Shown one piece after another: positions 953 to 1,834 of a stretch of DNA of 11,296 bases (the stretch's first letter is position 1; each line of letters opens with the position of its first letter). The position numbers and the translations under genes are program-made. The notes beneath the pieces are model-generated. The model searched no databases. It was not told the DNA's origin and saw nothing but the letters and a program-made list of their open reading frames with translations. The stretch is from a virus (Duplodnaviria > Heunggongvirae > Uroviricota > Caudoviricetes), in IMG/VR virus record IMGVR_UViG_2534682078_000023, one strand, 5' to 3'.

Positions 953-967
953 TTACAATTCAATCAG

Positions 968-1258
968 TTACGCCTTCTTTATATCCTCCATAATTCCAGA
1001 GTGGGACATATTTGGGACATTATCACCAAAAATGTCGTCTATTTTCCTCGCATGCTCTGTCAAATGATTAGGCGCAAGGTGAGCATACCTACGAACCATT
1101 TCTATGGACTCCCATCCGCCCATTTCCTGAAGCACTGATAATGGGACGCCTGACTGAATCAGCCAGCTTGCCCAGGTGTGTCTGAGGTCATGGAAACGGA
1201 AATCTTCAATTCCTGCACGACGACAAGCTGATAGCCATGATGTCTTGCTGAACCGCAG
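968..1258 (-). pseudogene. int: Phage tyrosine integrase, C-terminal catalytic fragment only (5' two-thirds deleted)
   Basis: The reverse-strand reading frame gives ...[94 protein letters not shown], with the HxLRHT box and catalytic RRY(A)H tyrosine motif of lambdoid integrases. The stop (rc TAA) is at 968-970, beside the tRNA 3' end. There is no N-terminal or core-binding domain; upstream the frame runs into C-gene sequence. The upper boundary is uncertain by about 15 bp. Confidence 0.8.
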
Positions 1259-1834
1259 AAGGTGTCGGCATATACCGGCCTGTCCGTGCAGGCTGTGCTG
1301 GATACCGAGGCTGCAGTGTACAGCGGTCAGGAGGCCATTGATGCCGGACTGGCTGATGAACTTGTCAACAGCACCGATGCGATCACCGTTATGCGTGATG
1401 CACTGGATGCACGTAAATCCCGTCTCTCAGGAGGGCGAATGACCAAAGAGACTCAATCAACAACTGTTTCAGCCACTGCTTCGCAGGCTGACGTTACTGG
1501 CGTGGTGCCAGCGATGGAGGGCGAAAACGCCAGCGCGGCGCAGCCGGACGTGAACGCGCAGATCACCGCTGCGGTTGCGGCAGAAAACAGCCGCATTATG
1601 GGGATCCTCAACTGTGAGGAGGCTCACGGACGCGAAGAACAGGCCCGCGTGCTGGCAGAAACCCCCGGTATGACCGTGGAAACGGCCCGCCGTATTCTGG
1701 CCGCAGCACCACAGAGTGCACAGGCGCGCAGTGATACTGCGCTGGATCGTCTGATGCAGGGGGCACCGGCACCGCTGGCTGCAGGTAACCCGGCATCTGA
1801 TGCCGTTAACGATTTGCTGAACACACCAGTGTAA
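1241..1834 (+). pseudogene. C: Lambda gpC-like prohead protease (S49 family), 3' fragment; N-terminal portion deleted
   Basis: The frame open from 1241 translates to ...[66 protein letters not shown]...AVNDLLNTPV*, recognised as the C-terminus of lambda C. Stop TAA is at 1832-1834, 10 nt before D as in lambda. Only about 198 of roughly 439 codons are present. Confidence 0.75.
1439..1834 (+). CDS. nu3: Nu3-like capsid scaffolding protein (nested, in-frame with C 3' end)
   Basis: An internal ATG at 1439-1441 is preceded by GGAGGG at 1430-1435 and gives a 131-aa acidic protein, MTKETQSTTVSATASQ...NDLLNTPV, co-terminal with C. The exact Nu3 start in lambda is recalled from memory and may differ. 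Confidence 0.55.
   Translation: MTKETQSTTVSATASQADVTGVVPAMEGENASAAQPDVNAQITAAVAAENSRIMGILNCEEAHGREEQARVLAETPGMTVETARRILAAAPQSAQARSDTALDRLMQGAPAPLAAGNPASDAVNDLLNTPV

Follow-up and report, generated by a model that had tools for sequence, protein, structure and literature searches.

A probable deletion scar joining remnants of intD and gene C in the argU-integrated prophage remnant of Escherichia coli O111

The analyzed DNA, referred to here as the window, is a stretch of 11,296 nucleotides from an IMG/VR virus record (IMGVR_UViG_2534682078_000023, Caudoviricetes). It is a piece of the E. coli O111 chromosome: many finished O111:H8/H-/NM genomes, RM9131 among them, matched it at 100% identity, and positions 606823-618118 of NC_013364.1 (O111 strain 11128) were almost identical. 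The window contains fimZ, the tRNA gene argU, a 3' piece of the integrase gene intD, a 3' piece of gene C, a block of head and tail genes, and an IS1203 element (Table 1). PMC6379469, referring to Lindsey, Mullin and Walker (1989), describes DLP12 as a cryptic prophage at argU of E. coli K-12 and reports that, of 638 Escherichia and Shigella genomes, 74% have a DLP12-type element at argU. The argU gene was also the prophage site common to all 11 finished O121:H19 STEC genomes compared in another study (PMC8767318). Our literature search returned only general statements on argU as a shared prophage site.

Table 1. Features of the window. Window coordinates of RefSeq features are those of the O111 11128 locus (L001) minus 19301.
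Feature	Position	Strand	Evidence or remark
fimZ	left part of window	-	upstream of argU
promoter-like site, TTGACT, 16-nt spacer, TATAAT	817-844	+	11/12 consensus matches, sequence only
argU, tRNA-Arg, anticodon tct, intact	876-952	+	Rfam tRNA, 72 bits; RefSeq annotation
attL core, 3' 48 nt of argU	905-952		repeat with far end and ev243
intD 3' remnant, 93 codons + stop	968-1249	-	homology; 1250 is one more integrase-derived base
junction filler AAC	1251-1253		matches neither parent
gene C (S49 prohead protease) 3' fragment	1254-1834	+	192 in-frame codons 1256-1831 + stop
D, intact head gene	1844-2176	+	RefSeq; protein accession same as in O26 11368
E, intact head gene	2232-3257	+	RefSeq
FI, intact head gene	3299-3694	+	RefSeq; protein accession same as in O26 11368
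FII (head-tail joining), split by IS3-family element at about 3987-5247	3706-5341	+	
tail genes Z, U, V, G, T and 5' 2.1 kb of H	5332-10029	+	
tape-measure gene H, truncated	7897-10029	+	truncated by IS1203
IS1203 (IS3 family), runs off window	10028-11296	+	ALIL frameshift pseudoknot 10364-10480 (Rfam)

The integrase remnant lies 15 nt beyond argU. Its minus-strand translation ends with ...GGWES...VRRYAHL...KKA* and contains both HDLRHT and RRYAH, in agreement with the HxLRHT and RRYAH motifs of the original prediction, which had recognized the 3' end of a tyrosine integrase but estimated it at about 97 codons. The Pfam profile Phage_integrase (PF00589) matched the remnant at profile positions 112-171 of 172 (E=8e-20). 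The remnant has exactly the sequence of residues 295-387 in the IntD of O26:H11 strain 11368 (387 aa), and 92 of its 93 residues matched the IntD of K-12 DLP12. By the PF00589 match and the IntD identity, the fragment is integrase-related, as the prediction required, and of the argU-associated DLP12/IntD type.

The C-terminal catalytic domain of tyrosine recombinases is recognizable by profile, and the HxxR motif, the W (GGW), and the Tyr nucleophile are kept. Residues 1-294 of 387 are missing, with both N-terminal domains and the ATGLRKS region, whose R would be Arg-I in the full-length protein. The remnant does not carry the complete catalytic set (Arg-I, Lys, His-x-x-Arg, His/Trp, and Tyr) or the N-terminal DNA-binding domains. 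Because residues 1-294 are gone, it is a gene fragment and not a functional member of the tyrosine recombinases. The integrase frame contains no start codon before a GTG at 1135, and RefSeq labels the piece as a partial pseudogene ('integrase, missing N-terminus'). The position of an IntD-type integrase directly downstream of argU on the opposite strand is that of the DLP12 family.

The adjoining piece derives from gene C and its nested scaffold gene nu3. Window 1254-2297 (+) showed 98.3% nucleotide identity to lambda 5157-6200; window 1254 equals lambda 5157, and lambda C and nu3 extend over 4418..5737 and 5132..5737, respectively. The Pfam profile Peptidase_S49 (PF01343) matched the 192-codon fragment at profile positions 101-151 of 154 (E=4.3e-07). 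The fragment keeps 44% of the 439 codons of C, the first 247 being missing; the break had been placed correctly in the interior of gpC, but the surviving part is larger than the C-terminal third expected. It corresponds very closely to nu3 without its first 25 nt. The nu3 ATG (lambda 5132) is lost, and the earliest in-frame start is a GTG at 1262. The piece is thus identifiable as lambda C/nu3 by identity, with neither an intact protease domain nor an intact nu3 start, and RefSeq labels it as a partial pseudogene ('S49 family peptidase, missing N-terminus'). The Pfam, IntD, and lambda alignments together confirmed that an integrase 3' remnant is fused to the interior of C. Judged from their sequences, the two fragments derive from intD and C/nu3, and neither would pass as a functional integrase or gpC/Nu3.

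The integrase homology stops at window position 1250 (...TGTCTTGCTG), where the parental int goes on with TCGATGCG. The C homology starts at 1254 (CGCAGAAGGTG...), and ATGTTTG precedes this point in the parental C. The same breakpoints were obtained from four references, namely phage ev243 (27187 / 5154), the O26:H11 11368 prophage (12375 / 39865 in locus L005), the O121 RM8352 prophage, and lambda (5157 on the C side). The homology to ev243, O26, O121, and K-12 ended at 1250 in every case. The two fragments are therefore separated by only 3 nt, not by the roughly 20 bp given before.

The alignment to lambda and argU lambdoid phages that had been proposed as a check thus located the breakpoint at 1250/1254, and no microhomology was found there against ev243, O26, O121, or lambda, with zero overlap and three extra bases. 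A microhomology-mediated deletion retains one copy of a short direct repeat, and the joint contains none. According to the RefSeq annotation, no IS is present at 1250/1254, where an IS-mediated adjacent deletion would have left one. The Rfam scan detected no RNA family at the joint, and the repeat scan detected nothing across it except a weak 21-nt inverted repeat with 1569-1589 (71% complementary).

Several origins of the AAC filler were considered. An allelic origin was rejected, since every intact C allele fetched reads TTTG-CGCAG and since, among the 2.9 million viral contigs of IMG/VR, an exact match to AAC plus the C sequence occurred only in an O111 contig with the same junction. For a templated origin, only scattered 10-11-mers were found (e.g. 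TTGCTGAACCG at ev243 22461), each at about chance expectation. A 7-nt match, ACCGCAG, is located 20 nt deeper in the deleted part of int. A two-step route through this match, by microhomology and slippage, would need an extra base and a second event; being less parsimonious, it was set aside and the match taken as a coincidence.

A second copy of the attL core, differing at one position, lies 14.7 kb further on, immediately beyond ompT and outside the window (attR, 34925-34972 in L001). The same 48 nt are also present in the attP region of ev243 (26842-26889), adjoining int. The 3' end of argU is thus duplicated at the far boundary, as in the DLP12 family, and the whole remnant spans 14.8 kb.

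The original prediction stated that the late structural block had been left in place. This is correct for D, E, and FI, but the block is not whole: FII is interrupted by an IS3-family element, H is truncated by IS1203, and a second segment of approximately 9.9 kb is gone. The second loss corresponds to ev243 12687-22553 and includes the 3' end of H, M, L, K, I, J, lom, and the tail fibers. It adjoins IS1203 (L001 29331-30636), so that an IS end lies at the H'::IS1203 joint near 10029, as expected for an IS-mediated adjacent deletion. The O111 genomes E2863, SF26 102-1, and UTAK-22 diverged from the window at about 10028, indicating that the IS1203 end is still variable within the clade.

Inside the IS3-family element of FII, a full-length match to the Rfam model isrC (Hfq-binding sRNA) was found at 4058-4180 with 150 bits; the model apparently corresponds to IS sequence. 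Strain 9662 (O111:H8; L011, about 4441-4530) is without this element, although it was not cleanly excised. A deletion between two CCGGAT repeats (window 3975-3990 and 5245-5260) took out the IS together with 10 nt of FII, and FII is frameshifted. This loss is of the microhomology type (CCGGAT), whereas the int::C joint has no such repeat. Strain 9662 was rejected as a date for the IS3 insertion, because it represents a secondary IS loss and does not inform the order of events. An insertion in common with 2012EL-2448-type strains was also rejected, because the IS lies there in T and not in FII, within a different hybrid prophage.

The right-end cargo (L001 30637-34974) consists of a SAM-dependent methyltransferase gene, a tfa fragment, an alpha/beta hydrolase gene, and ompT, and was 99.7% identical to ev243. 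In ev243 itself, ompT, the alpha/beta hydrolase, and the SAM-dependent methyltransferase occupy 22584-26422, between the tail-fiber genes and attP. The ompT-containing cargo was kept in the five loci for which the right end was fetched; the O26 stretch fetched ended before the cargo. Therefore, ompT appears to be phage cargo left behind in every decayed version with the right end fetched.

The O111 element was compared with related prophages at argU. Like K-12 DLP12, it uses the 3' end of argU as its site, has a repeat of about 47-48 nt at the far end, and is defective. Window 1-1250 was 99.5% identical to K-12 fimZ-argU-intD 3', and the right-end cargo is of the same family (ybcY-type methyltransferase, tfa fragments, and ompT). 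However, the parts that survive differ: K-12 DLP12 has full intD, Q, the lysis genes, and nohD but nothing of the head and tail region, whereas the O111 remnant keeps D through H' and has lost the early, lysis, and packaging half. No match to window 1254-10030 was found in K-12.

The prophage of O26:H11 11368 (NC_013361.1, 612001 to about 650000) occupies the same argU site. Its identity to O111 was 99.92% over window 1-1250, 99.60% over 1254-3986, and 99.77% over 5248-10030, and the FimZ, D, FI, G, and T proteins are identical in both strains. It is near full length, with full intD, an early region, repressor, O/P, Q, lysis genes, Nu1, A, W, B, and C. The comparison with related strains that the original prediction called for thus yielded an almost complete prophage at the same site (99.6-99.9% identical), which offers the best available picture of what the pre-deletion state may have been. 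This prophage has defects of its own. In L005, an IS3-family element lies between iss and cos (30278-31491), ISCro1 (IS66 family) lies 462 nt into C (36881-39581), and K has an internal stop (48838-49581).

Phage ev243 (Nesevirus, NC_049955.1) and its relatives 2G7b, Turner, and PhiR30_1 are deposited as complete genomes. The int 3' end of ev243 was 100% identical to that of O111 (311 nt), the lambda-type genes C through H were 96.5-98.3% identical, and a methyltransferase-hydrolase-ompT cargo likewise adjoins attP. Unlike ev243, which is complete at 45.6 kb, O111 is without 23.5 kb and 9.9 kb and has two IS elements in addition.

The O121:H19 RM8352 prophage (NZ_CP028110.1; L004 12868-36445) belongs to the same family at argU and has lost its early, immunity, and lysis regions independently of O111. 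It retains full intD, four small early genes, an IS3-family element abutting Nu1, A through J', and a second IS3-family element. At the same site and from the same phage family, the ECL27977 element (L007 9269-13942) has three joints (xis'|rzpD, iss|'C, and E'|L). EC596 (L006 9269-12330) was 100% identical to ECL27977 downstream of its joint and 99.94% identical upstream; by a further 1.6-kb deletion it has lost two of the ECL27977 joints, so that a single int-xis'::'C joint, with a 3-nt overlap, remains. The joints in EC596 and ECL27977 overlap by 3-6 nt, whereas the O111 joint has a 3-nt filler, and the length of C retained differs among ECL27977 (855 nt), EC596 (411 nt), and O111 (581 nt). 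This nested series indicates that one joint can hide several events.

In 2012EL-2448 (L008 1-44000), a late half and right end (ompT-envY) are present at the argU-locus boundary, with an IS3-family element in T. The left half of this prophage carries yfdP/yfdQ/yfdR-type genes, which we take to be typical of the K-12 CPS-53 prophage region. This arrangement suggests recombination or inversion between two prophages.

The gene content lost from O111 was read from the annotation of ev243 and O26 11368. In prophage order, the lost interval comprises 23,526 bp of ev243 and 27,489 bp of O26 11368, the latter including two IS elements. From the 5' part of int, it extends over xis, exo/bet/gam, kil, N, the immunity region, O/P, the nin region, Q, a porin moron, the lysis cassette, bor/iss, cos, Nu1, A, W, and B to the protease part of C. 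The predicted loss of regulatory, lysis, and packaging functions agrees with this content, since immunity, Q, lysis, cos, terminase, and portal all fall within the interval. The gene blocks named as lying between the two points were also correct, but their distance is not essentially the whole genome; approximately 23.5 kb of a 45.6-kb phage is roughly half.

The junction was found with 100% identity in 47 complete O111 genomes, which come from many different laboratories and platforms. An assembly artifact, or an inversion or translocation by which the missing early region persists elsewhere in the genome, has some prior plausibility, as EHEC genomes are repeat-rich and invert between prophages, but its likelihood is negligible here. 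Misassembly, which would have overturned the prediction, is excluded by the identity of the junction in 47 independently finished genomes. An inversion would place int-3' against C-5' in reverse complement, whereas int-3' (-) is joined here to C-3' (+), collinear with intact relatives as a simple deletion requires. Furthermore, a composite query, made of window 700-2200 and the 925 nt missing from the 5' side of int, matched two places per genome in 44 of the 46 O111 genomes listed, the same number as a baseline query without int (30 genomes listed), so the lost int half is not elsewhere in those 44 genomes. The other two genomes, 7-27 20A and SF4-1, gave three places with the composite query, and neither is among the 30 listed for the baseline. 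Inversion and translocation were rejected on the orientation and on the lack of the int 5' part elsewhere.

We therefore read 1250/1254 as the scar of an illegitimate deletion that occurred once, in the ancestor of O111 (H8/H-/NM), within a resident DLP12-family prophage, with a probability of roughly 0.9. The breakpoints, the lost content, the collinearity, the clonal distribution, and the lack of the lost int part elsewhere in the genomes noted above are direct observations. The parent would have been an argU-integrated lambdoid prophage like that still present in O26:H11 11368. The deletion would have removed everything from codon 294 of intD to a point 25 nt inside the nu3 of gene C, and the ends would have been joined with AAC; neither an IS nor extended homology would have been needed. 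The outcome is a 'grounded' 14.8-kb remnant with argU, both att sites, a promoterless late block, and the right-end cargo. The lack of an IS, of an att core, and of microhomology at the joint, together with the 3-nt filler, points to RecA-independent illegitimate end joining. We can only speculate that the loss of lethal phage functions was neutral or advantageous, and any selective benefit would be conjecture.

The original prediction spoke of a single large internal deletion. The deletion itself holds, but its singleness cannot be proved from the joint, because only the outermost breakpoints survive and the EC596/ECL27977 joint came from nested deletions. Several nested deletions, some perhaps IS-mediated, of which the last erased the earlier junctions, are a possible though not the favored history. 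The ECL27977 structure (int-xis'|rzpD-iss|'C-D-E'|L) and its further 1.6-kb reduction to one int-xis'::'C joint in EC596 are a precedent; the O121:H19 early region was lost beside an IS3-family element, O26 has IS insertions within the interval lost in O111, and a second deletion, next to IS1203, is present in the O111 element as well. However, among the matches listed from 5,426 genomes, neither an intermediate with one of the O111 breakpoints nor a direct parent was found, and no IS is left at the joint. Such a history would alter only the sequence of events, as the identity of the feature is the same in both cases. It is improbable that the int fragment and the C-to-H block came from two prophages, in tandem or successive at argU, fused by recombination or deletion. 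Lambdoid prophages are mosaic, tandem integration occurs in Shiga-toxin-producing E. coli, and the 2012EL-2448 locus resembles a hybrid of two prophages, but both O111 flanks match one single O26 prophage at 99.6-99.9%, and one phage genome, that of ev243, is collinear with the remnant over its full length, right-end cargo and attR included. Aberrant site-specific excision by Int/Xis is hardly conceivable as the source of the deletion, even though att sites bound the element and Int was once encoded: the left breakpoint is 298 nt inside int and away from the att core, which is intact, and the right breakpoint lies in C without similarity to that core.

The remnant is without integrase, excisionase, replication, Q-dependent late transcription, lysis, cos, terminase, portal, and protease functions. 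The statement that the element cannot excise, replicate, or package is thus sound for autonomous behavior but not for excision in trans. As both att sites remain, a related Int/Xis provided in trans might conceivably excise it. The late genes are decaying through the IS3-family element in FII and IS1203 in H, which argues against a maintained function.

A promoter-like site precedes argU in the orientation of the surviving late genes, and the deletion has put the 'nu3-D-E block about 300 nt downstream of this predicted argU promoter and in the same direction. A simple terminator scan predicted no terminator between the two. It is nevertheless very doubtful that read-through from argU expresses a truncated scaffold (nu3 minus 11 codons if the GTG at 1262 is used) and capsid proteins with a biological effect. 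If it does, the products might block head assembly of superinfecting lambdoid phages as a dominant-negative defense, or the block may act as a donor for marker rescue. A GC-rich hairpin followed by a T-run (GGCCGCCTGTGCGGCTTTTTTT) is present between D and E at 2196-2222 and was missed by the simple terminator scan. It looks like an intrinsic terminator and would limit argU read-through without Q. This hairpin and the IS insertions argue against a maintained operon.

The element is an instance of prophage decay of a known kind; its pseudogenes are already in the public annotation, and it is a member of the well-known DLP12/argU cryptic family. Within this family, the O111 scar is a textbook case of prophage 'grounding', and its exact breakpoints provide a clean clonal marker for the O111 (H8/H-/NM) lineage. 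K-12 DLP12, O26, O121, ECL27977, EC596, and O111 represent one family at one tRNA site with independent and complementary decay. Decayed prophages are known to act as recombination donors for incoming lambdoid phages, and the O111 remnant is a possible donor of head and tail genes in this respect. Upstream in the same O111 11128 locus, the adhesin gene of the sfm fimbrial operon (annotated as fimH, L001 17774-18773) is frameshifted, and it is intact in O26 11368 and O121 RM8352.
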